From the NCBI RefSeq assembly GCF_963528195.1, contig NZ_CAURVN010000002.1, positions 3,902-67,901 on the forward strand: a DNA stretch of 64,000 bases, written 5' to 3'. Made by a program: the position numbers and the translations under genes. Shown piece after piece: positions 1 through 41,328 of the stretch. Origin of the DNA: an uncultured Granulicatella sp. Its GTDB lineage: Bacteria > Bacillota > Bacilli > Lactobacillales > Aerococcaceae. The notes under the pieces are model-generated. The model was not told the origin of the DNA and searched no databases. It saw nothing but the letters and a program-made list of their open reading frames with translations. Numbering within the stretch: the first letter of the stretch is position 1; every line of letters begins with the position of its first letter.

Positions 1-176
1 GAAATGTTCCTCGGACTAACTCCTTCTCCTAATTCTGGTTCTTGAACAAATTTTAATGAAGTAACAAAGCAATCACTTTTCATAAAATCATCATACGTTT
101 TATAGATATGTTCTGCTACCTTTTCGTAATCAGCTTTGTTATATTTTTCATGTACAAAAATATCTATATTTTTCAT
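1..176 (-). CDS. hypothetical protein, N-terminal part only (continues past the left edge)
   Basis: ATG at 176-174 with AAGGAGG five nt upstream (plus-strand cctcctt at 182-188). The frame is open to position 1. Translation: MKNIDIFVHEKYNKADYEKVAEHIYKTYDDFMKSDCFVTSLKFVQEPELGEGVSPRN. Too short and truncated for the ORF track. No family recognised. Confidence 0.55.
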   Translation of the reverse strand, partial: MKNIDIFVHEKYNKADYEKVAEHIYKTYDDFMKSDCFVTSLKFVQEPELGEGVSPRNI

Positions 177-445
177 CTCAACCTCCTTAATGGGGTGTGA
201 AAATTATCATTAGTCTCACACAACTTCTAATTTTTATTTATCTACTTCAGCTTTTTTAGTAATTCTACAAAAGGTACTTTATTATTATCTTTTCTAAGCG
301 AAATCAAATCAAAAACAGAATCAACATCTAAATCAAACATTACGGATTTCAAACTAATTGTCATAAAATTCATATCTTGATAATGTTTTTGGACCCCTAG
401 TCCATCCAACTTTAGTAAGAAACTATAAATAGTAATAAATTTATT

Positions 446-3220
446 CTAGATTGTATCATTATTTATGCTTATTTTCTCTTTGGTTTCATTTTCATTGGTT
501 TCATTTGCAGCCTTTCGTATCAAATAATGATTATCTACTAATCCCTTCTTTATAATATAGTTCTTTTTTGTATTATCTTTAAAATCTAATTCATAGAGAC
601 CATATATTATTTCAATTTTAATCTGATATATCTCATTATCCATCATTTTAGATAATTGATTTAAGGCTAACTCTTTATATTTAGACTTACATAACATTAT
701 TAGTGTTCTTGTAGCTTGCACTCTTATATCTTTTTCATTATGAGAACTCAAGCCTATTGAATACTGAATAATTGTAGATAAAACACTATCCTCTAATTTG
801 TCAAAGTCTACATTATACAAAAATGATTTTAAAGTTTCAAATGATTTTATAATTTCTATTTCTGATTTTTGAGAAAATATTGCCATTTTAGAAAGAACAT
901 TCGAAAAATCATATTTATTGAAGCATAATTGTAACATCATAAAGCTAAATTCTAAAGTACTTAGAGATGCCTTTTCAAAAAACATTTCCTCGCGTCCGCA
1001 CAATACTAGTTCTTTATCTTCTATTATTGAGTAAAATGTTGAATCCAATTCTTTTTCATAAGGATATTTGTTCTTCAGGTAAATGAATAGTTCAATTGCT
1101 CTAATCTTGTCTCCAATAGTCTGTTTTTCTTCTCGCAATGTTCTAACAATAGAAGATAATATTGATTTTATATGTTTTGTATCTAGCTTTAGTTTATCAA
1201 ACTCTATAATATTTCTAATTGTTTTATAGGGGTCATCAGCATATCCAATTATAGTTCCATTCTTTCCTTGCTCTTTATTACGTTGATTAATTCTTTCAAC
1301 ATACCTATTAATATGCTTGTATGTTTCATCACCTCTGTTATGCTCTATCTCTAGTAAATATTCAGATAAGTAAAAGCTGTTCATACATTCTTCAATAGTA
1401 GTATCTAATAATTCAACATCTATCGTTATATTTTTCCTTAATACTATCAAGTAACTTGAAAGTACCTTGCAACCTTTTCTTATTTCTTCATTCTTTATCA
1501 TATCAATTATCAATTCAAGTACTTTCTCCTGATTGATAGTAGATATTTTTGAATAATTAATTCTACTTAATACTTTTAATATATTATCAAAATATATCCT
1601 GAAGTTTTTTTCTATAAGAGTTATGCATACTTCTATAATTTTATTATTATCTATTCTAGATATATTATATATTAAAAATTCAAAGATATAGCTTGCTATA
1701 CTTAGAATTCTATTTTTATCTGCAATCCATATATCAACCTCTTCAAACACTTCATATACATATGAAGTGAATAAATCATCACCGAAGTAGTAACCATAAT
1801 GTTTTAAAATCAATAATTTTGAAATAAACCTCTTATGTGGAACTGGGATTAAATTTATTCCTGAAATCATATTCACAATATCTGTTGCATTTATCGTATC
1901 TGTACTTTGATTATAAGCTCTTATAATTTTTTCTAATTCTTTATCATTTTGTTCCATTAATAATAATTTAATAAGAAAAATGTACATATTATGATCATAA
2001 TACAAAAAATTTAAGCTTGAAAGTATACTAATCATTCTATCTCTAATTAACAACAGATGTGTTAGAGAACCATAAGTCATTGATAATATAAATGACTTAG
2101 ACACATCATCAAGAATATCATCAACTCCTTCAAAATGTGTTGTATATGGAGAATCTACCTTCTGAGCCATTAACCTTTTAAGCAGCTTTTGTGATAAACT
2201 ACCTGTACATCTATCAAGTAATGGATAATATACATTTTCCTGATTTTCTTCCAATAAAGTTTGTGGTTTCATTTCTAACGAATATTGATTATTTATCTCA
2301 TCTTGCAAGACAATAATATTTCTCCAATCTATTAAAACATCATTGGAAAGCCAGTTTGGTATTTTATCATTATTAATCGATTCATTGTATGCATTTTCTA
2401 ATTCATTGGCACATTCATCTAATTCATTTGAAAAATATGCTTCTATAGCTCTAACTCTATATGTAATAAAAGACTTCAAGTAAGATTCATGTCTATTACA
2501 TAACTCATTTGCTAAACTAGAATAATTAATCGGTATATTTGTATGGTGACCTAATAGATTTGAAAACATTATACTAAGCGATTTATCTAATTTAAAATCT
2601 AATCTTGAACTTTCTTCTTTTTTTGTATTAAATATTATCTCTTTAGCTACATTTCTCGTCATAGTAAATCCTTGAAAAAGTTCTTTATCAATAATATAGT
2701 TATTACTTATAACGTTTATCTCTTCTGTATCTTCATTAATAGCAAAATCAACGAATTGTTCTCTACAATAGTTTCTATAAATATCAACAACATCTCTCAT
2801 TATTCCAGTATATACTTTTTCAATAAAGTCAGAAAACTCGTGAACTACGTCATATTTTTCTCTAAAACTATCTCGTATTTCTAATTGTAGTTGTGTAGGT
2901 TCCTTTTTATCTTCATCACAGAAAATATATAATGCCCTCTTTTTTAATTCTCTAGCCCGTTTTTGTTCCTTCAAGACAGCCTCCGACACATCATCCTTAT
3001 TATCTATCAAGAACACGCATAAATCCGAGTCATCTAGTTTTGTGATATAACTATCTATTACATGTTGGCTTGATGGCCCTTGCTCTTCAAATATAAATAC
3101 TTGAACTATATTTGTTTCTGATAATAAAGATTTTAAAGCCTTCCTTACCAAAGTATATCTTCCACCACATTTTGAGCTAATAAATACTTTTACTTTATAT
3201 TCAATGGTACCATCTCTCAT
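446..3220 (-). CDS. large uncharacterised protein: TIR-like/DUF4062-like N-terminal domain plus about 800 aa of helical (HEAT/ARM-like) repeats; candidate Abi/defence protein
   Basis: 924-aa ORF with a GGGGGG RBS upstream. N-terminus: KVKVFISSKCGG...VQVFIFEE...DDSDLCVFLIDNKDDVSEAVLKEQ. No Walker A motif anywhere. C-terminal HEAT-like segments include EKDIRVQATRTLIMLCKS and DNHYLIRKAANE. Very AT-rich. Confidence 0.85.
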   Translation of the reverse strand: MRDGTIEYKVKVFISSKCGGRYTLVRKALKSLLSETNIVQVFIFEEQGPSSQHVIDSYITKLDDSDLCVFLIDNKDDVSEAVLKEQKRARELKKRALYIFCDEDKKEPTQLQLEIRDSFREKYDVVHEFSDFIEKVYTGIMRDVVDIYRNYCREQFVDFAINEDTEEINVISNNYIIDKELFQGFTMTRNVAKEIIFNTKKEESSRLDFKLDKSLSIMFSNLLGHHTNIPINYSSLANELCNRHESYLKSFITYRVRAIEAYFSNELDECANELENAYNESINNDKIPNWLSNDVLIDWRNIIVLQDEINNQYSLEMKPQTLLEENQENVYYPLLDRCTGSLSQKLLKRLMAQKVDSPYTTHFEGVDDILDDVSKSFILSMTYGSLTHLLLIRDRMISILSSLNFLYYDHNMYIFLIKLLLMEQNDKELEKIIRAYNQSTDTINATDIVNMISGINLIPVPHKRFISKLLILKHYGYYFGDDLFTSYVYEVFEEVDIWIADKNRILSIASYIFEFLIYNISRIDNNKIIEVCITLIEKNFRIYFDNILKVLSRINYSKISTINQEKVLELIIDMIKNEEIRKGCKVLSSYLIVLRKNITIDVELLDTTIEECMNSFYLSEYLLEIEHNRGDETYKHINRYVERINQRNKEQGKNGTIIGYADDPYKTIRNIIEFDKLKLDTKHIKSILSSIVRTLREEKQTIGDKIRAIELFIYLKNKYPYEKELDSTFYSIIEDKELVLCGREEMFFEKASLSTLEFSFMMLQLCFNKYDFSNVLSKMAIFSQKSEIEIIKSFETLKSFLYNVDFDKLEDSVLSTIIQYSIGLSSHNEKDIRVQATRTLIMLCKSKYKELALNQLSKMMDNEIYQIKIEIIYGLYELDFKDNTKKNYIIKKGLVDNHYLIRKAANETNENETKEKISINNDTI

Positions 3221-3478
3221 CTTTCAATCCCCCCTTTAATCTTGCGTATATAACATAATAAATAAGCATATTATTATCTTACCATTGTTCCCTTTATTTC
3301 TGAATTCGTTCAAAGATTTCCCTTTTGACAAATTATATGTGAGCATAGTGGTATCCCCGCACCGTGTAAAGTGAAGTCATCAAAATCATGTTTAATGTAT
3401 TGACTGATACGCAACACATTGCCAACCCTATTTAACAAATCATATATAACTCATTTATCCATTTAACTATTCAAGATA

Positions 3479-3691
3479 TTAATTTTCTTTCTTAATACAC
3501 TCTACTATTTCTTCAATATTACAGTCTAAAGCATTACAAATTCTAAGCAAGACATCCGTAGTTACATTTTGCCCGTTCTTCATTTTGTAAAATGTACTTT
3601 TACTCACTTTTGCCTTTTCCATCAATTCATTATTTGTCATATCTAAATCAATTAGTTTTTTGAACAATCTTTTATAACTAAAAACCTTCAT
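3479..3691 (-). CDS. XRE/Cro-C1 family helix-turn-helix transcriptional regulator
   Basis: 70 aa. Contains MTNNELMEKAKVSKSTFYKMKNGQNVTTDVLLRICNALDC, a typical HTH_26/XRE pattern. GGAGG RBS (aacggaggataaga ATG). Confidence 0.85.
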   Translation of the reverse strand: MKVFSYKRLFKKLIDLDMTNNELMEKAKVSKSTFYKMKNGQNVTTDVLLRICNALDCNIEEIVECIKKEN

Positions 3692-3726
3692 TCTTATCCT
3701 CCGTTCAAGAAACCTAAATTTAATAT

Positions 3727-3735
3727 ATTATACCA
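3727..3735 (-). promoter_or_regulatory. extended -10 element (TGgTATAAT) of the XRE gene promoter
   Basis: The minus strand reads tatggTATAATatatt about 35 nt upstream of the XRE ATG. The -35 is weak. Confidence 0.45.
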
Positions 3736-3811
3736 TAAAATACACTTTTTTCATAAATATGTTCTCTTTAATCGAACTCACGCAAATAAAAATGTAAAGT
3801 TTCAAAGTAAT

Positions 3812-3836
3812 TTCTAGTTAAGTATCAAAACTAGAA
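3812..3836. repeat. 8-bp inverted repeat TTCTAGTT-N9-AACTAGAA upstream of the XRE promoter (possible operator)
   Basis: Perfect arms at 3812-3819 and 3829-3836. Confidence 0.3.
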
Positions 3837-3854
3837 CTTAGATTGAGAATTTAC

Positions 3855-3890
3855 CAAAAAAGGTATTTTGACTATACAGTCAAAATACCT
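3855..3890 (-). terminator. rho-independent terminator (13-bp stem)
   Basis: AGGTATTTTGACT-atac-AGTCAAAATACCT. It is preceded on the plus strand by AAAAAA, which is the T-run on the minus strand. Confidence 0.75.
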
Positions 3891-3956
3891 AATTCGTAAC
3901 GTACTCCTATTATGATCCTTCCACAAGAATAGACTTTTCACTGTAGTATTAATAAT

Positions 3957-3985
3957 AAAAACCACATCCAGTGGTTTTTATTATA
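3957..3985. terminator. bidirectional terminator downstream of the ABC-2 operon
   Basis: AAAAACCAC-atcca-GTGGTTTTT, flanked by A/T runs on both sides. Confidence 0.7.
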
Positions 3986-4005
3986 GGAAATTTTGAGACC
4001 TAGGC

Positions 4006-4050
4006 TCAAAATTTAGGCATGAGATTCGCTTGCGAAGCTGCTGCCGTCCT
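4006..4050. repeat. REP-like structured intergenic element, copy A
   Basis: The 38-nt core ttaggcatgagattcgcttgcgaagctgctgccgtcct (4013-4050) matches 57853-57890 at 31/38 positions. It lies 28 nt past the stop of the minus-strand permease gene. Confidence 0.7.
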
Positions 4051-4078
4051 TTACTACAGCACGAAAGTCTAATTCGCC

Positions 4079-4807
4079 TTACACAGCTTTTCTTGTTAGT
4101 TTTGCTAAAAAGATTTCTTTTCGTGTTGGATTTAATACAATTAAGTTTACTAAGAACAACCCTACTAACCAAGCTAACGGTACACCAATCGTTTCAAAAC
4201 TTAACTCAAAACTTTCTTTTGTAAAGAAGTCTACATAAACTCCCATAAATGTATAATGAGCAATTTTTGAAACAGTCTCACTCAATCCAGAGAATAATGG
4301 TAAAAATGAAATAGCCATCATAGGTACTAAACCATTCACTTGCGCTTGTGATTGAGTATTAGAAAGAGAAGCAATTAATAAGTTTAATAATACAACACAT
4401 AGCCCTACAACAATCGCTACTACAAAATATGCTCCCCAATGTTTCCCAAAGTCTGCATCTACAATCATTGGAAAACTTACAATCGTTACAAGACCAATAA
4501 TAACTGGATAAAATAGTGCAGATAATAAATATTCTCCATTTCTAACACCACTGAGTAATAAAGATTTCAAGTTTTTCTTTTCCTTATCTTCTGCAATTGT
4601 TAAAGAAGTTAAACTTCCTAGCGAAACTGAGAATGCTAATGATAAACACATGAATACCATATATGAAGAATGTAGTCCATCCTCATTCATAAATTGGTTG
4701 TATAAGACTAATAATCCATACGGTAATAAAATCGTTGCTAATAAAGTGCTGTTACTTAATAATACTTGTGTGCGTAGCCAAACTAAGGCAGTTAATCGTT
4801 TAATCAT
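4079..4807 (-). CDS. ABC-2 type transporter permease
   Basis: 242 aa, polytopic and hydrophobic. Overlaps the stop of the upstream ATPase gene (4800-4807). Confidence 0.8.
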   Translation of the reverse strand: MIKRLTALVWLRTQVLLSNSTLLATILLPYGLLVLYNQFMNEDGLHSSYMVFMCLSLAFSVSLGSLTSLTIAEDKEKKNLKSLLLSGVRNGEYLLSALFYPVIIGLVTIVSFPMIVDADFGKHWGAYFVVAIVVGLCVVLLNLLIASLSNTQSQAQVNGLVPMMAISFLPLFSGLSETVSKIAHYTFMGVYVDFFTKESFELSFETIGVPLAWLVGLFLVNLIVLNPTRKEIFLAKLTRKAV

Positions 4808-5624
4808 TTAATTTCTCTCCTGTCAATTGAATAAATATTTCTTCTAAAGTTGGTTCACATGAGTGAATCGCAACAACTTGTGCTAGATCTGTTTGTCCTA
4901 ATTCTTCAAAAGTAATTTGTGTATGTGTTTCATCTGCGAATGTTAATTGAACTTTTTTCTCGTGATTATATTTTTGAATAATCGAAGAAGGTGTGCCGTA
5001 TTCAATTAAATGTCCTCGGTTCAATAAACTTAGACGGTCACATAATAATGTTGCTTCGTTCATATCGTGAGTTGTTAAGAAAATCGTTGTTCCTGCTTCT
5101 TTTAGTTCTAATAATAATTCATGGATTTTCTTAGAAGTAGTTGGATCTAATCCGCTTGTTGGCTCATCTAAAAATAATACTTTTGGCTTATTGATTAAAG
5201 CTCTTGCTAGAAACATTCTTTGTTTCATTCCTGTCGATAATTTCTCTGCTGCTAAATTTTTACTATCGTATAAATCGACTTGTTTTAACACTTCATCTAC
5301 TCGTGCATTTGGTTTTCCATATAATTTTGCGTAAGCTTGTAAATTTTTATACAGGCTTAGTTTTTCATAAAATCCACTCGTATCACTCACTAATCCGATT
5401 AGTTCTAAATCTGCTGGAGTTAACTTCTCAGACACTTTGCCTAACAATTCTGTTTGCCCGTTATCAGCATTTAATTGTCCCGTTAAAATTTTAATCATTG
5501 TTGTTTTCCCTGAACCAGATGGCCCTAAGAATCCAAAAATTTCTCCTTTCTTCACTTCAAAAGAAATTTCTTCTAAAGCAACTTTTTGATTAAATTTTTT
5601 TGTAACGTTTTTTACAATAATCAT
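4800..5624 (-). CDS. ABC transporter ATP-binding protein
   Basis: Walker [10 protein letters not shown], signature LSTGMKQR, Walker B LFLDEPTSGLD. Confidence 0.93.
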   Translation of the reverse strand: MIIVKNVTKKFNQKVALEEISFEVKKGEIFGFLGPSGSGKTTMIKILTGQLNADNGQTELLGKVSEKLTPADLELIGLVSDTSGFYEKLSLYKNLQAYAKLYGKPNARVDEVLKQVDLYDSKNLAAEKLSTGMKQRMFLARALINKPKVLFLDEPTSGLDPTTSKKIHELLLELKEAGTTIFLTTHDMNEATLLCDRLSLLNRGHLIEYGTPSSIIQKYNHEKKVQLTFADETHTQITFEELGQTDLAQVVAIHSCEPTLEEIFIQLTGEKLND

Positions 5625-5753
5625 GTTTATCCCCTCTTTACTAATTTCCTAACTGATGAATTCATTATAGAAAATTTTTCTTTATTCCAGTAGTGTCTTG
5701 AGTCACTACCTACCATGACTTTAGTCACGAATTCTCATGCAAATCGTCACGAC

Positions 5754-5779
5754 AAAAAAGCATACCGAAATCGGTATGC
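5754..5779 (-). terminator. rho-independent terminator after ydcF-like gene
   Basis: GCATACCG-aaat-CGGTATGC with a plus-strand A-run upstream. Confidence 0.7.
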
Positions 5780-5803
5780 CTTCCCTAGTATCCATTTAAC
5801 TTT

Positions 5804-6832
5804 CTACCACAATATGCCTCGATACGATAATATAACCAATAGAACATATAGTAATTCAAACCCTATAAAGAGTTTTTTCATTTTCACACACATCGCTACA
5901 TATTCACGAATAAAAGCGGATGGAATATAATAACTGGCAGTGGAGCAACCTAAACCATCCCCCTGCATTCCAATTTGACGAGCATAAGTACTCGTACGAA
6001 ATACATGATAATCATTTGTTACAAATAAAAATCGAGGATTTTTAATCAATTGCTCTCCTATTTCTTTAGAGAACAATAAATTTTCATAAGTTGTTGTAGA
6101 TTTTTCTTCTAATATAATAGCTTCTTTTGGCACATCTGTATGTTCCACTAAATAGTTATACATCGCTTGTGCTTCAGATATTTTTTCATCACTACCTTGT
6201 CCACCACTGGAAATAAGTCGAATATGAGGATTTTTGGATTTTTGAAATGCTTGTACAGCCTTATCAATTCTCTTTTTTAGAAGAGGCGTAACTCTTTCCC
6301 CATCTAACAATCCGGCACCATGAATAATAATAAAATCATAATGCTGTTTCTTCGGCACCCATAAATAGACAAACGAGTACATCATAAATCCTACAAACGC
6401 AAATCCAAAAATAATATAAGAATAAATGATAAACATAAATAGTATATTAATCCACGGATTATAAATGAAAAAATTATTTGTAACTAGCCCAACTCGAATC
6501 CACATAAAAACAAAGAATAATAAAATTACAATCCCCATAATAGGAGAAAGAAGATTCGCTTTAGAAAAACCTTCTTTTTTTAACAAAATAAAGCCATTAA
6601 TGATTAAAAATAAACCACTCAAAAGAATCAGAACAGGAATGAGTAAAATTCCTACTATCATCACCAAATGAGCATTTTCATACCCAAAACTAAAAAAGAG
6701 ATTCGCAATGGATAGATATAAAAACAACACTTCAATGACTAATAAAGCTGGATTCCATAAACTGCGATTATCCTTCCACATAGAAAAAAGTAAGGCAATT
6801 AATACGAAAATCGTAACTCCATATAAAAACAT
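5804..6832 (-). CDS. YdcF/DUF218 family membrane protein
   Basis: N-terminal TM helices, then IIIHGAGLLDGERVTPLL...SSGGQG...TTTYENL...VTNDYH, which are DUF218 motifs. Confidence 0.85.
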   Translation of the reverse strand: MFLYGVTIFVLIALLFSMWKDNRSLWNPALLVIEVLFLYLSIANLFFSFGYENAHLVMIVGILLIPVLILLSGLFLIINGFILLKKEGFSKANLLSPIMGIVILLFFVFMWIRVGLVTNNFFIYNPWINILFMFIIYSYIIFGFAFVGFMMYSFVYLWVPKKQHYDFIIIHGAGLLDGERVTPLLKKRIDKAVQAFQKSKNPHIRLISSGGQGSDEKISEAQAMYNYLVEHTDVPKEAIILEEKSTTTYENLLFSKEIGEQLIKNPRFLFVTNDYHVFRTSTYARQIGMQGDGLGCSTASYYIPSAFIREYVAMCVKMKKLFIGFELLYVLLVILSYRGILW

Positions 6833-6846
6833 ACTAACCTACTTTC

Positions 6847-8208
6847 TTACTCTGCTAAAATTTTTTCAAAATCAAAAACTTCACCTTTTTGTTTATCGCT
6901 TAAAATTAAAGCAATCACGATCCCTACTAAAGCTGGAACTCCCCATCCTAACGATAAAGTAGAAAATGGTAATTGGTTCATCATAGTAGATAATGCAGAT
7001 AGTTTTAATGTGTCTCCTAATACTGTTAATACGGATACTAGAACTGTCAATCCAACTGTTAATTGCATTCCGATTTTAGAAAGAGGAACAAATTTATTTA
7101 AAAGAATTAATATAACCATAATAATCGTAATTGGATATAAAATTAATAATACCGGCAATGAAAACTTAATTACTGTATTTAATCCTAAATTAGAAATTCC
7201 AAATCCAATGAAAGAGAAAACTGTTGCATATACTTTATAAGAATATTTAGGGAATAATTCTTCAAAGAACTCTCCAGTTGAAACAATTAATCCAACCGTT
7301 GTTGTAAAGCACGTTAAGATAACCATTGCTCCTAAAAATACTTGTCCAAATACTCCAAAAATATCTTTGGAAGCTGCTGTTAAAATATAAGAACCTTTAT
7401 TAACTGTTTCATCTGCTAATACATCTGCAGGCACTGTAAAATGATTTCCTAAATTAGCTAATCCTAAATATAAAATACTAAAACCTACAGCAGTTACTAA
7501 ACCTACTCCAATAATGGTTTTTGTAAATTCTTCTTTTGAAGAAAAATGGAATTTTTTCAATGTATTTACTGCTACCACACAGAAGGCAACAGAAGCTAAG
7601 GCATCTAATGTATTGTAGCCTTCAATAAATCCATTCCCAAACGAACCACCATTTTGATAAGCTGTTGCTGCTTGCATTGGTGCTACTCCTGCATATTTAA
7701 TCGCTCCTAATAATACTAAGACTAAAATTAACCCTGCAAATAAAGGTGTTAAAATTTTCCCGATACTATTTAAAATCGTTGAACGATGAATCGCAATCCA
7801 ATATGCTGCAACAAAGTATAATACTGTATATATAAACAATGATAAAGTGCTTGAAATTCCCATTGAGGCTAAAGATGACTCAAATGGCTGAATACTAATC
7901 GAATACGAAACAGTTGCTGTTCTTGGAATTGCAAAAAATGGTCCAATTGACAAATATAAAACAGCTAAAAATGCTACTGCAAATACTTTATGAACTTTAC
8001 TTTCTAATTCATGTTTAAAACTTCCATTACTCGTTGCGCCTACAACTAATGTTATAATGGGAATACCGACGCCTGATAAAATAAATCCCGCAATCGCCGG
8101 TCCGAAATACTCACCAGAAAATAACCCTAATGAAGGCGGAAAGATTAAATTTCCTGCTCCAAAAAAGAAACCAAATAATAATAAACCTGTCAATAAGCCC
8201 TTTTTCAT
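6847..8208 (-). CDS. brnQ: branched-chain amino acid transport system II carrier (LIVCS family)
   Basis: 453 aa. Has the GFFFGAGNLIFPPSLG hallmark and a 12-TM-like profile. Confidence 0.92.
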   Translation of the reverse strand: MKKGLLTGLLLFGFFFGAGNLIFPPSLGLFSGEYFGPAIAGFILSGVGIPIITLVVGATSNGSFKHELESKVHKVFAVAFLAVLYLSIGPFFAIPRTATVSYSISIQPFESSLASMGISSTLSLFIYTVLYFVAAYWIAIHRSTILNSIGKILTPLFAGLILVLVLLGAIKYAGVAPMQAATAYQNGGSFGNGFIEGYNTLDALASVAFCVVAVNTLKKFHFSSKEEFTKTIIGVGLVTAVGFSILYLGLANLGNHFTVPADVLADETVNKGSYILTAASKDIFGVFGQVFLGAMVILTCFTTTVGLIVSTGEFFEELFPKYSYKVYATVFSFIGFGISNLGLNTVIKFSLPVLLILYPITIIMVILILLNKFVPLSKIGMQLTVGLTVLVSVLTVLGDTLKLSALSTMMNQLPFSTLSLGWGVPALVGIVIALILSDKQKGEVFDFEKILAE

Positions 8209-8235
8209 CTTACATTCTCCTTTTCTCTTATAATA

Positions 8236-8268
8236 TGCGAAAGAGTACGTTGTAAAGCAACGTACTCT
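8236..8268 (-). terminator. terminator after metG
   Basis: AGAGTACGTTG-taaag-CAACGTACTCT, an 11-bp stem. Confidence 0.6.
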
Positions 8269-8292
8269 CCCTACAATAACTGTGTCTACTCA

Positions 8293-10320
<2,028 letters not shown>

Positions 10321-12136: not shown

Positions 12137-13567
12137 TTAATATTTTGCTAATTCTTCTTGTAATAATTGGTTTACAATTCCAGGATTTGCTTTTCCTTTT
12201 GTTTGTTTCATAATTTGACCCACTAAGAAGCCAACTGCACGATCTTTACCATTTTTGAAGTCTTCAATAGACTGTGCGTTATTAGCTAACACATCTTGAA
12301 TAATTGGTAATAATTGTGATGGATCACTTAATTGAATCATACCATGTTTTTCAACAACTTGACGAGCAGTTCCGCCTTCTTCAGCTAATAATAAGAATAC
12401 TTTCTTCGCTAATTTAGAGCTGATTGTTCCATCTCCAATTAATTGAATCATTTCTGCTAAACTTTGCGGTGTTAATAATAGATCTTGTAATTCTAATTTT
12501 TTACTATTTAAGTGAGCAGAAATATCTCCCATTAACCAGTTAGAAGCTAATTTTGGATCGCTACCAGCTGCAACTGTTTCATCAAAGAAATCAGACATTT
12601 CTTTTGATAATGTTAAGACCATTGCATCATATTCTGGTAATCCAAATTCACGAATATAACGTTCACGACGAACGGTTGGCATTTCAGGAATTGATTGACG
12701 AACTTCTTCTACCCATTCATCTGAAATTTCTAAGTTTGGTAAGTCTGGTTCTGGGAAGTAACGGTAGTCACTTGAACCTTCTTTCACACGCATTAAAATT
12801 GTTTGTCCATTTGATTCATCAAAACGTCTTGTTTCTTGACCAATAACGCCACCACTACGTAATACTTGAGCTTGACGTACTTCTTCAAATGCTAAACCTT
12901 TACGTACATTATTGAATGAGTTTAAGTTTTTCAACTCTGTTTTTGTACCGAATTTTTCTTGGCCATAAGGACGTAAAGAAATATTCGCATCACAACGCAT
13001 TGATCCTTCTTCCATTTTCACATCAGATACGCCTGTAAACATAATAATTTGACGTAATGCTTCTAAGTAAGCATATGCTTCTTCAGGAGAACGCATATCC
13101 GCTTCAGATACAATCTCAATTAACGGAGTTCCTTGACGGTTTAAGTCTACATATGAGAATCCATCCGTTCCGTGAGTATTTTTACCAGCATCTTCTTCTA
13201 AGTGAACACGTTCGATACGGATACGTTTTGTTTTTCCTTCTACTTCAATATCAATCCATCCATCATGACCGATTGGGTAATCAAATTGAGAAATTTGATA
13301 CGCTTTTGGATTATCAGGGTAGAAATAGTTTTTACGGTCAAATTTTGTATGTTGTGAAATTTCACAGTTTAATGCTAATGCAGCACGCATTCCAAATTCA
13401 ATCGCACGTTTATTAATAACTGGAAGTACCCCTGGATAACCCCAGTCAATAACTGTTGTATTTGTATTTGGCTCTGCTCCAAAATGAGCTGGTGAAGGAG
13501 AGAAGATTTTTGAATCTGTTTTTAACTCTACGTGAACTTCTAGCCCAATAATTGTTTCAAAATTCAT
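12137..13567 (-). CDS. gatB: Asp-tRNA(Asn)/Glu-tRNA(Gln) amidotransferase subunit B
   Basis: Begins [15 protein letters not shown]. 476 aa, in the gatCAB order. Confidence 0.97.
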
Positions 13568-27987: not shown

Positions 27988-28096
27988 CATTAAATGCAGC
28001 GAATGCGAATACACTACCGCAAAGAGTTCTCTTTTTCGTCCAATCGGCAACATCCCATCCGTTTGGCACTTAACGCAATGTATTCTACTCTGATTT
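27988..28096 (-). promoter_or_regulatory. THF (tetrahydrofolate, folT-motif) riboswitch
   Basis: The minus strand reads AGAGUAG-AAUACAUU-GCGUUAAGUG-...-GGAUGGGAUGU-...-ACGAA-...-GCGGU-AGUGUAUU-CGCAUUCGCUGCAU. This matches the blocks I remember from the E. siraeum THF aptamer (AGAGUAG, GCGUUAAGUG, AUGGGAUGU, ACGAA, GCGGU, GCAU). Confidence 0.8.
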
Positions 28097-41174: not shown

Positions 41175-41202
41175 TTGCAATTCGTTTTGTTTTTGGTATA
41201 AT
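41175..41202 (+). promoter_or_regulatory. promoter TTGCAA-16-TGgTATAAT (extended -10)
   Basis: -35 at 41175-41180 and -10 at 41197-41202. No plus-strand ORF follows. Confidence 0.6.
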
Positions 41203-41208
41203 AAAGAT

Positions 41209-41328
41209 ACAAAAAGAGCCGAGCAGCAACTCGACTCTAATGTAGACCGTTGAAAAGACGGTGGCAGTTATTAGTGTATTAATAACACCGCTAACTCTTC
41301 CAAAGTTATGAGCGGTGTTATTTTTTTG
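41209..41328 (+). ncRNA. candidate antisense sRNA of about 120 nt (putative type I antitoxin)
   Basis: Three hairpins: GAGCCGAG..CTCGACTC, ACCGT..ACGGT, and the terminator AATAACACCGCT..AGCGGTGTTATT followed by T7. It is convergent with the small toxin-like ORF and overlaps its 3' end. Confidence 0.5.
41211..41237 (-). terminator. minus-strand terminator (candidate 3' end of the toxin mRNA)
   Basis: The minus strand reads GAGTCGAG-ttgctg-CTCGGCTC-TTTTTGT. Confidence 0.5.

Follow-up and report, generated by a model that had tools for sequence, protein, structure and literature searches.

The stretch of DNA considered here (hereafter the window) comprises 64,000 nucleotides of contig NZ_CAURVN010000002.1 from an uncultured Granulicatella sp., and close to its left end it carries, on the minus strand, a gene for a protein of 924 residues. 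This gene probably encodes a self-contained abortive-infection protein of the DUF4062 class, with the architecture of the single-protein system Vulcan; Le Mouellic et al. have renamed the DUF4062 domain NIR (10.64898/2026.09.04.749371). The protein consists of an N-terminal DUF4062 head with an invariant Phe (F13) and an invariant Glu (E85), a disordered linker, and a long HEAT/ARM-like solenoid that is joined to such a head throughout the homologues inspected. Its gene lies in an accessory, mobile cassette whose relatives are found among other defence genes. The window protein is thus presented as a divergent, unannotated Bacillota member of the already described NIR-HEAT class.

The head, the linker and the solenoid

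The assignment of residues ~10-150 to a DUF4062/TIR-like domain appears to be right. Pfam DUF4062 (PF13271) matches the window protein with E=4.8e-5 and also matches 36 of the 43 members of an alignment of the family, the best at 3.3e-7, and several homologues carry a precomputed PF13271 annotation. The CAP12/Pycsar TIR model of Pfam (CAP12-PCTIR_TIR) matches the window protein as well (E=1.2e-3), and among the 43 members there are isolated matches to CAP12-TIR, TIR_2 and Nuc_deoxyrib_tr. An AlphaFold2 (AF2) model, built from the 43-sequence alignment, has a mean predicted local distance difference test score (pLDDT) of 86.9 and a predicted template modelling (TM) score (pTM) of 0.75 over the full protein. 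In it, strands at residues 10-16, 39-43, 67-73, 95-101 and 122-126 alternate with helices and form a five-stranded parallel sheet. A separate model of the head (residues 1-152), also with a pLDDT of 86.9, was compared with known structures using Foldseek, and the matches were DNPH1, nucleoside 2-deoxyribosyltransferase (NDT), the RPS4 TIR domain, TIR-STING and ThsB, at query-normalised TM scores (TMq) of 0.5-0.65.

Six residues of the head, F13, S15, S16, E45, N74 and E85, are invariant in the 43-sequence alignment. When the family was aligned by hhalign with Eva01, a DUF4062 protein of plasmid pMW2 (L076:3863-4837; E=4.1e-5), F13 fell onto F11 and E85 onto E87, the alignment stopping at residue ~102. 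The AF2 model places E85 in the helix after the third strand. The conserved Glu has counterparts in KpSwz (E97), Vulcan (E98) and TEP1 (E1008), as well as in Eva01.

Other catalytic modules were sought in the same protein. A Walker A motif ([AG]xxxxGK[ST]) is absent from the 924 residues, in which not even GK[ST] occurs, and the match to nSTAND_NTPase5 is insignificant (E=0.18, Pfam). A weak match of profile A2 to the EngA/Der GTPase, in the beta3-alphaC region, was dismissed as spurious, the protein having no P-loop. No SIR2 match was found in the window protein with Pfam, PADLOC or NCBIfam.

The linker is followed by about 40 helices, modelled by AF2 with a pLDDT mostly above 90. Foldseek searches with the whole model return generic HEAT/ARM solenoids (PP2A-A, CAND1, importin-beta) with a probability of ~1 and TM scores of at most 0.27. 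Since PDB and BFVD together yield only such generic solenoids, plus weak NDT/TIR matches, the solenoid is without a specific structural relative. Sequence searches agree with a HEAT-like character: a few family members match Pfam HEAT, HEAT_2 or TOG, and the solenoid profile gives weak matches in PDB to the HEAT regions of AP-2 alpha and eEF3. When the protein itself and profiles A1 and A4 were searched against PDB sequences, nothing beyond insignificant HEAT-like matches was obtained. Conservation is highest in the head (0.63), lower in the solenoid (0.46, with conserved islands) and lowest in the linker (0.27). Such a gradient is the pattern expected if a fixed effector were joined to a more variable recognition module, and the solenoid would then be the domain of trigger recognition and autoinhibition. 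The Granulicatella allele has 924 residues, against 919 in its closest relatives, owing to a duplication-like insertion of five residues (NETNENETKEK vs NEIKQK) in the disordered C-terminal tail (window 446-520).

Much of this had been anticipated by an initial annotation made from the letters of the window alone. It had proposed a strand-helix alternation in the N-terminal part (seen in the AF2 model over residues 10-126) and an all-helical remainder with HEAT/ARM-like repeats, as the model and the searches now indicate. It had also suspected a DUF4062/TIR-like head and singled out the Glu in SEAVLKE; the Pfam and Foldseek results bear out the former, and the latter is the invariant E85, which pairs with the catalytic E87 in the Eva01 alignment. 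The lack of a Walker A motif was likewise reproduced, as were the annotated ORF (open reading frame) positions, the 258-nucleotide gap, the ribosome-binding sites (RBSs), the extended -10 and the hand-counted G+C content (11/60 at 1561-1620; 27/60 at 13081-13140).

The family is large. In a collection of 5.8 billion proteins, full-length homologues form more than 150 clusters (905-935 residues, 24-45% identity), nearly all of them unnamed. When only the C-terminal 750 residues were used as a profile, 743 representatives (50% clustering) were matched, of which 433 reached E<=1e-30. Among the 150 best-matching of these, the solenoid starts nearly always at residue ~175-220 of a protein of 900-960 residues and is fused throughout to DUF4062; no other effector domain is found on it there, and longer variants keep the KIxVFISS head and merely gain N-terminal modules. 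The fusion of head and solenoid therefore appears obligate among the representatives inspected. In one longer member, P0247 (1263 residues), a calcineurin-like Metallophos domain (Pfam, E=2e-14) precedes DUF4062 and the solenoid, and this protein could be a two-effector version; calcineurin-like phosphoesterases are listed among NAD+ (nicotinamide adenine dinucleotide)-degrading defence domains (10.64898/2026.09.04.749371).

The 743 clusters come mostly from Clostridia and Bacilli that live in the gut or the mouth, and they constitute a large, almost wholly unannotated branch of NIR proteins. Most members score too low for the Pfam DUF4062 threshold, and PADLOC 2.0, NCBIfam and PHROGs all lack a match to the window protein, so that annotation pipelines call it 'hypothetical'. 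The NIR systems tested to date come mostly from Proteobacteria or staphylococcal plasmids; this family supplies versions from Gram-positive anaerobes.

Relation to known systems and rival explanations

Three bioRxiv preprints from 2026 deal with this domain. Osinski et al. have characterised DUF4062 as a TIR-like NADase (10.64898/2026.05.01.722283). In the Swarozyc protein KpSwz, the head is followed by a stalk and a winged-helix auxiliary (AUX) domain, and the NADase, with E97 as its catalytic residue, is activated by the phage portal (10.64898/2026.05.01.722283). The Evangelion systems of Ibarra-Chavez et al. each consist of one DUF4062 gene, carried on a plasmid of staphylococci or enterococci, whose product has a short AUX tail; in one of them, Eva01, the substitutions F11A and E87A abolish defence, and NAD+ falls on infection (10.64898/2026.06.25.731849). 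Vulcan, a single protein from Enterobacter roggenkampii (WP_050009967.1) that consists of NIR and HEAT repeats, protects Escherichia coli; it loses defence with E98Q, depletes NAD+ and causes growth arrest at high multiplicity of infection, and its trigger is lambdap79, a small coliphage protein (10.64898/2026.09.04.749371). All four bacterial DUF4062 systems that have been assayed (Swarozyc, Eva01, PsAvs2 and Vulcan/Vesta) deplete NAD+. Abortive infection by NAD+ depletion, which the initial annotation had suggested for the locus, is the function established by experiment for this class of domain.

Vulcan is the system that the window protein resembles in layout. Both are single proteins in which an N-terminal NIR domain with the conserved Glu (E98 vs E85) is followed directly by C-terminal HEAT repeats, without an NTPase module or a conserved partner gene, and both are encoded by an accessory gene. 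They differ in host, which is a member of the Enterobacteriaceae for Vulcan and of the Bacillota here, and in the XRE regulator gene that travels along in the present case. The window protein is therefore filed as a Vulcan-type NIR-HEAT protein on architecture, the comparison being one of architecture and description rather than of solenoid sequence or NIR clade, so that the two solenoids may be homologous or the fusion may have arisen twice. A permissive tblastn search of plasmids for the Vulcan reference returned an unrelated Rhizobium protein only. The initial annotation had called the system undescribed and could place it in no named one; that statement no longer holds, as single proteins of the NIR(DUF4062)+HEAT architecture received the name Vulcan, together with experimental validation, in September 2026 (10.64898/2026.09.04.749371).

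Membership in the other DUF4062 systems was considered and rejected. Eva01 (pMW2 WP_000072390.1, 324 residues) shares with the window protein the F11/E87 pair (F13/E85) and the habit of a single gene on mobile Gram-positive DNA. However, it scores 91.8 bits with DUF4062, against 23.9 for the window protein, is plasmid-borne, and has, in place of a solenoid, a DNA-binding auxiliary region of ~150-170 residues. The Evangelion core motifs are F11, E87-Y88 and Q/W/E together with a co-adapted AUX tail (W162, F212); in the window protein Q/W/E is not recognisable, the C-terminal part is a 740-residue solenoid rather than a short tail, and tblastn against PLSDB shows no similarity. Swarozyc, too, joins a TIR-like NADase head of the DUF4062 type, catalytic Glu included, to an auxiliary domain at the C-terminus that senses a phage protein, and it causes abortive infection by depleting NAD+. 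There, however, a helical stalk and a small portal-binding winged helix take the place of the ~740-residue HEAT-like solenoid; the AF2 model contains no winged helix, its C-terminal part being an all-helical solenoid. Membership in the STAND/Avs-type NIR proteins was set aside as well, the central NTPase with its Walker A motif being absent.

Two further proteins offer parallels for the use of helical repeats. The HEAT domain of DSR2 of Bacillus subtilis binds a phage tail tube protein and thereby switches on a SIR2 NADase (PMC11263360). The SIR2 effector fold is unrelated to the TIR-like DUF4062 fold, and since the head of the window protein is TIR/NDT-like, with no SIR2 match, membership was rejected. 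With the solenoid profile, no DSR2 chain was found in PDB even at E<=10, and DSR2 lies outside the top 50 Foldseek matches. The resemblance is one of analogy, not shared ancestry. In SARM1 (ARM + SAM + TIR), a helical-repeat domain autoinhibits a TIR-type NADase within one polypeptide. Unlike the window protein, SARM1 has the reversed domain order and a SAM oligomerisation domain, is eukaryotic, and uses its ARM domain to sense nicotinamide mononucleotide (NMN) and NAD+, not a viral protein; it was not among the Foldseek matches of the whole model.

These relatives and analogues suggest the following model. In the uninfected cell, the solenoid and/or the packing of an oligomer would keep the NADase head inactive, by extension from experiments on relatives. 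Upon infection, the solenoid would recognise a phage protein and the head would hydrolyse NAD+, and the resulting collapse of NAD+ would arrest the infected cell before phage release, i.e., abortive infection. The XRE protein, a repressor of the type that controls LlaJI restriction-modification (R-M) genes, probably sets the level of expression, for example on entry into a new host, and would not be needed for retention of the gene.

Several observations weigh against this model. The DUF4062 score of the window protein (23.9 bits) lies slightly under the Pfam gathering cut-off of 24.7. In the hhalign alignment, the positions of the Evangelion Q/W/E motif are taken by V54-I55-D56, which is not conserved, and no clear equivalent of the motif can be made out. 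The DUF4062 domains of human NWD1, NWD2 and NPHP3 were found to lack NADase activity (10.64898/2026.05.01.722283). The top Foldseek matches of the head are not NADases but N-hydrolases of deoxynucleoside monophosphates (dNMP) and deoxyribosyltransferases, and because these are the nearest folds, the substrate of the head is uncertain. In addition, many polar residues of the solenoid are invariant (R255, D298, D336, R337, R522, Q700, K705 and D896), which is unusual for a purely phage-facing sensor. Finally, some loci have no recognisable defence neighbours, such as L081, in which the gene lies beside metK.

Because dNMP hydrolases and deoxyribosyltransferases are the solved structures closest in fold to the head, the main rival keeps the architecture and the defence role and changes the chemistry, to cleavage of dNMP, nucleoside monophosphates or NADP+, or to production of a signal derived from ADP-ribose. 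DNPH1 and the NDTs lead the Foldseek list of the head, one member matches Pfam Nuc_deoxyrib_tr at 1.3e-6, functional diversification of NIR has been speculated upon (10.64898/2026.09.04.749371), and activation of Eva01 disturbed several adenine metabolites (10.64898/2026.06.25.731849). However, TIR and NDT folds are too alike for Foldseek rank to decide the substrate, no conserved second gene is present to read a signal, and NAD+ depletion is the outcome in every bacterial DUF4062 system assayed. We regard a different chemistry as unlikely.

Another hypothesis, which we consider rather improbable, concerns the solenoid. In this version, a divergent NIR head would have been joined independently, in a family centred on Bacillota, to a new kind of helical repeat not homologous to the HEAT repeats of Vulcan, and a fixed, invariant polar pocket would sense a conserved small molecule or nucleic-acid feature made during infection, not a variable phage protein. 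The residues proposed for such a pocket are R255, W290, D298, D336-R337, R522, the motif RNxxQGxNG (645-655), Q700, K705 and D896. The ARM domain of SARM1, which senses NMN, provides a parallel for a pocket that binds a small molecule. Only if the solenoid proved unrelated to that of Vulcan, or sensed something else than a phage protein, would the interest of the family rise.

The cassette, its spread and its neighbours

The G+C content of positions 357-3792 is 0.266, compared with 0.338 (standard deviation 0.017) for segments of the same length across the remaining 64 kb. The lowest of these is 0.289; the cassette falls below every one, and the compositional islet described in the initial annotation is thus real. 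The same interval was found by blastn at 98.1% nucleotide identity in Peptoanaerobacter stomatis ACC19a (L002) and at 94.5% in the uncultured Clostridiales UMGS225 (L003), the shared block being the XRE gene, the spacer, the large gene and about 90 nucleotides past its stop codon. In two further loci, L001 and an Ileibacterium metagenome-assembled genome (L004), only 360-3288 is matched, at ~89%, together with a decayed XRE remnant. The RBS region of the large gene is kept in all four of these close relatives, including L001 and L004, in which the homology extends to 3288. In L004 (2564-5321), two overlapping ORFs, one of 396 residues and one with the remainder, make up the homologue, a sign of either a frameshifted pseudogene or an assembly error.

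The surroundings of the cassette were followed in L067, the same genome on longer metagenome scaffolds, which was recovered by look-up of the exact protein. The gene order there begins with an ABC (ATP-binding cassette) ATPase and an ABC-2 permease, followed by the XRE gene and the 924-residue gene. Next come ORFs of 43, 126 and 43 residues, a TRAM/U5 RNA methyltransferase and a SLFN_AlbA_2 protein. The islet therefore spans only ~4.8 kb, and its left end, left undefined by the initial annotation, is now placed; the annotation's report of no integrase stands, none having been found in the extended locus. The host side of the islet is marked by the terminator of the ABC-transporter operon, and in L002 and L003, too, the cassette starts directly after a terminator. 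No terminal inverted or direct repeats were found at the cassette ends. Both the neighbouring MetRS and the 924-residue protein are recorded by NCBI from "uncultured Granulicatella sp."

The initial annotation had raised variable presence at this site, and this is what is seen. In a related Granulicatella genome (L077), the synteny gatB...metG-brnQ...ABC transporter is kept and the cassette is absent after the permease. Downstream of the permease, L077 has a phosphotransferase system operon instead of the RNA methyltransferase, and because these downstream genes differ, the comparison gives absence only and no precise excision scar. Among 65 loci taken from species representatives (one genome per species), none is from Granulicatella. 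Searches with tblastn found no match to the family in PLSDB (72,556 plasmids, E<=1e-3) or among the INPHARED phages, and one IMG/VR prophage carries a family member. As judged from these sequences, the 924-residue gene is accessory and recently acquired by Granulicatella. Because the cassette has neither mobility genes of its own nor terminal repeats, it is proposed that Granulicatella acquired it very recently from other Bacillota of the mouth or gut, probably through recombination of DNA brought in on a mobilisable element. The 98% nucleotide identity between the Granulicatella and Peptoanaerobacter copies, along with the Clostridiales copy, speaks for very recent exchange of a defence gene within the human oral and gut flora.

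The initial annotation had grouped the XRE gene, the large gene and at least one further gene as a module, and of these the large gene remains. The third ORF is complete in L067 (13045-13425) and codes for 126 residues; it falls beyond the segment common to the window, L002 and L003, no other of the 84 loci holds a relative, and Pfam, PADLOC and NCBIfam give no match to it. The XRE gene accompanies only relatives of the large gene that are at least 92% identical, and none of the small upstream ORFs at ten distant loci encodes a helix-turn-helix (HTH) protein. Conserved partner genes were not found next to family members, the neighbours varying from locus to locus. Since the 126-residue ORF is unshared and the XRE gene is limited to close relatives, only the large gene qualifies as the conserved functional unit.

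The XRE protein matches Pfam HTH_26 (E=2.2e-16) and, weakly, HigA-type and Xre-antitoxin HTH models, and it shares 70% identity with the HTH_26 regulator at the head of a LlaJI-type R-M operon in L001, which suggests that the regulator of the cassette may have been borrowed from, or may be common with, controller genes of R-M systems. In L001, a homologue of the large gene with 85% identity lies directly downstream of this operon, which is complete (3806-9709) and consists of the HTH_26 regulator, two C5 DNA methylases, an AAA_5 McrB-like ATPase and RE_LlaJI; the large gene is intact there, while the XRE gene ahead of it, as in L004, is a decayed remnant. The likeness to an R-M regulator and the decay upstream of an intact gene argue that the XRE gene is a lineage-specific accessory, an optional expression controller and not an antitoxin. 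A toxin-antitoxin or addiction module, in which the large protein would be a toxin, held in check by XRE as antitoxin or repressor, and would stabilise its carrier DNA without sensing phage, would account for a small HTH gene directly upstream on the same strand, for the weak antitoxin-type matches and for the location of the cassette on a mobilisable element in L002. It is nevertheless highly improbable, given that XRE is missing beside all distant homologues and has decayed in L001, that its closest relation is to an R-M operon regulator, and that a simple toxin would have no evident use for a conserved solenoid of 740 residues.

Several sequence elements may bear on expression. The third ORF has an AAGGAGG RBS, and the XRE gene has an extended -10 (TGgTATAAT) upstream of it. 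Promoter-like matches overall (35) are not enriched relative to shuffled sequences (30.1 +/- 5.7), and the site upstream of the XRE gene is for this reason to be read as a consensus match only. The 258-nucleotide spacer has no terminator-like site, a single weak promoter-like match (3370->3342), and repeats that are short and imperfect only; it may hold a candidate second promoter or operator.

The placing of family members beside defence genes, another proposal of the initial annotation, is borne out by the neighbourhoods. The L002 copy is part of a mobilisable element, with a large serine recombinase on one side and a MobA relaxase together with NikA/MobC on the other, and the L003 copy is flanked by the genes for a type IV restriction enzyme (GmrSD) and for a Fic protein. 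For NIR genes as a whole, a share of 20% close to known defence systems has been published, against a baseline of 3.9%. A survey of 127 neighbouring genes, two per side at 49 independent loci, found mainly R-M, abortive infection (Abi), Thoeris and recombinase genes: restriction helicases of the ResIII (6) and SWI2_SNF2 (5) types, ATPases of the PbeA (4) and AriA-like (3) types, AbiLi (3), ThsA, ThsB and RloB (2 each), as well as DNA methylases, transposases and serine, tyrosine and rve recombinases. In L079 (553-7297), two different DUF4062 genes stand side by side in one small island, which comprises a WYL-like gene, a 236-residue DUF4062 protein (E=4.7e-13), a UPRTase, unannotated genes of 394 and 358 residues, and a family member of 908 residues. 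In the IMG/VR contig L084 (7977-12504), a member with 28% identity abuts a prophage large serine integrase, and the next genes encode a helicase, a superinfection-exclusion-like protein and a pair of ImmA-like protease and repressor. Loci such as that beside metK, the lack of a PADLOC 2.0 match and invariant polar motifs that would suit the binding of a fixed ligand of the cell could instead reflect a non-defence protein, for example a scaffold-borne enzyme of nucleotide metabolism or a regulatory protein, lying by chance in variable DNA, but the patchy distribution with 98%-identical copies across bacterial orders, the absence from a related Granulicatella genome, the defence-dominated neighbourhoods with one copy beside a prophage integrase, and the validation of the same architecture as a defence system (10.64898/2026.09.04.749371) make this very improbable.

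Coordinates and other elements of the window

Positions of the cassette, its genes and their parts in the window
Feature	Position	Strand	Basis
Transferred two-gene cassette (XRE + DUF4062-HEAT gene), 3.4 kb	357..3792	-	blastn span, sharp junctions, G+C content
924-residue ORF (WP_314450116.1; NCBI name 'hypothetical protein')	446..3220	-	ORF call; DUF4062/NIR head + linker + HEAT-like solenoid
DUF4062 (NIR) TIR/NDT-like alpha/beta domain, residues 10-150	2771..3193	-	Pfam, AF2, Foldseek; predicted NADase
Phe13 codon, first-strand FISS motif	3182..3184	-	invariance, alignment to Eva01 F11
Glu85 codon, putative catalytic glutamate (in SEAVLKE)	2966..2968	-	invariance, alignment to Eva01 E87
Disordered linker, residues 153-174 (22 residues)	2699..2764	-	pLDDT <50, conservation 0.27
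HEAT/ARM-like all-helical solenoid, residues 179-920 (~740 residues)	461..2686	-	AF2, Foldseek, Pfam
G-rich RBS of the 924-residue ORF, AAAGGGGGG	3229..3237	-	direct sequence reading
Spacer between XRE gene and 924-residue ORF, 258 nucleotides	3221..3478	-	
XRE gene, 70 residues	3479..3691	-	ORF call
Promoter-like site with TG-extended -10, upstream of XRE gene	3727..3754	-	ATGAAA-16-TATAAT, 10/12 matches
Intrinsic terminator of upstream host ABC-transporter operon	3861..3890	-	13-bp perfect stem then T-run
Third ORF, leaves the window	176->1	-	first 58 codons of 126-residue orphan ORF

To the left of the window, at 15589-17031 of L067 and two genes past the islet, lies the SLFN_AlbA_2 protein, which also carries HATPase_c_4; Pfam SLFN_AlbA_2 occurs in 2 of the 127 surveyed neighbours of other family members as well. 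No structured RNA was found within the islet. Outside the cassette, between the stop codon of the ABC-2 permease and the islet, there is a partial, sub-threshold match to the Streptococcus small RNA SSRC8_2 (window 3983-4046, plus strand; 36.8 bits vs gathering 72, E=6.4e-8), a stretch that could be a conserved intergenic or terminator element. Elsewhere in the window, positions 27995-28094 (minus strand) hold a full-length tetrahydrofolate (THF) riboswitch aptamer (87.4 bits, gathering 36, E=5.9e-19), and positions 41199-41285 (plus strand) match the RatA antitoxin RNA of a type I toxin-antitoxin system (50.7 bits vs gathering 49, E=3e-4), opposite which there may be a small txpA-like toxin ORF.

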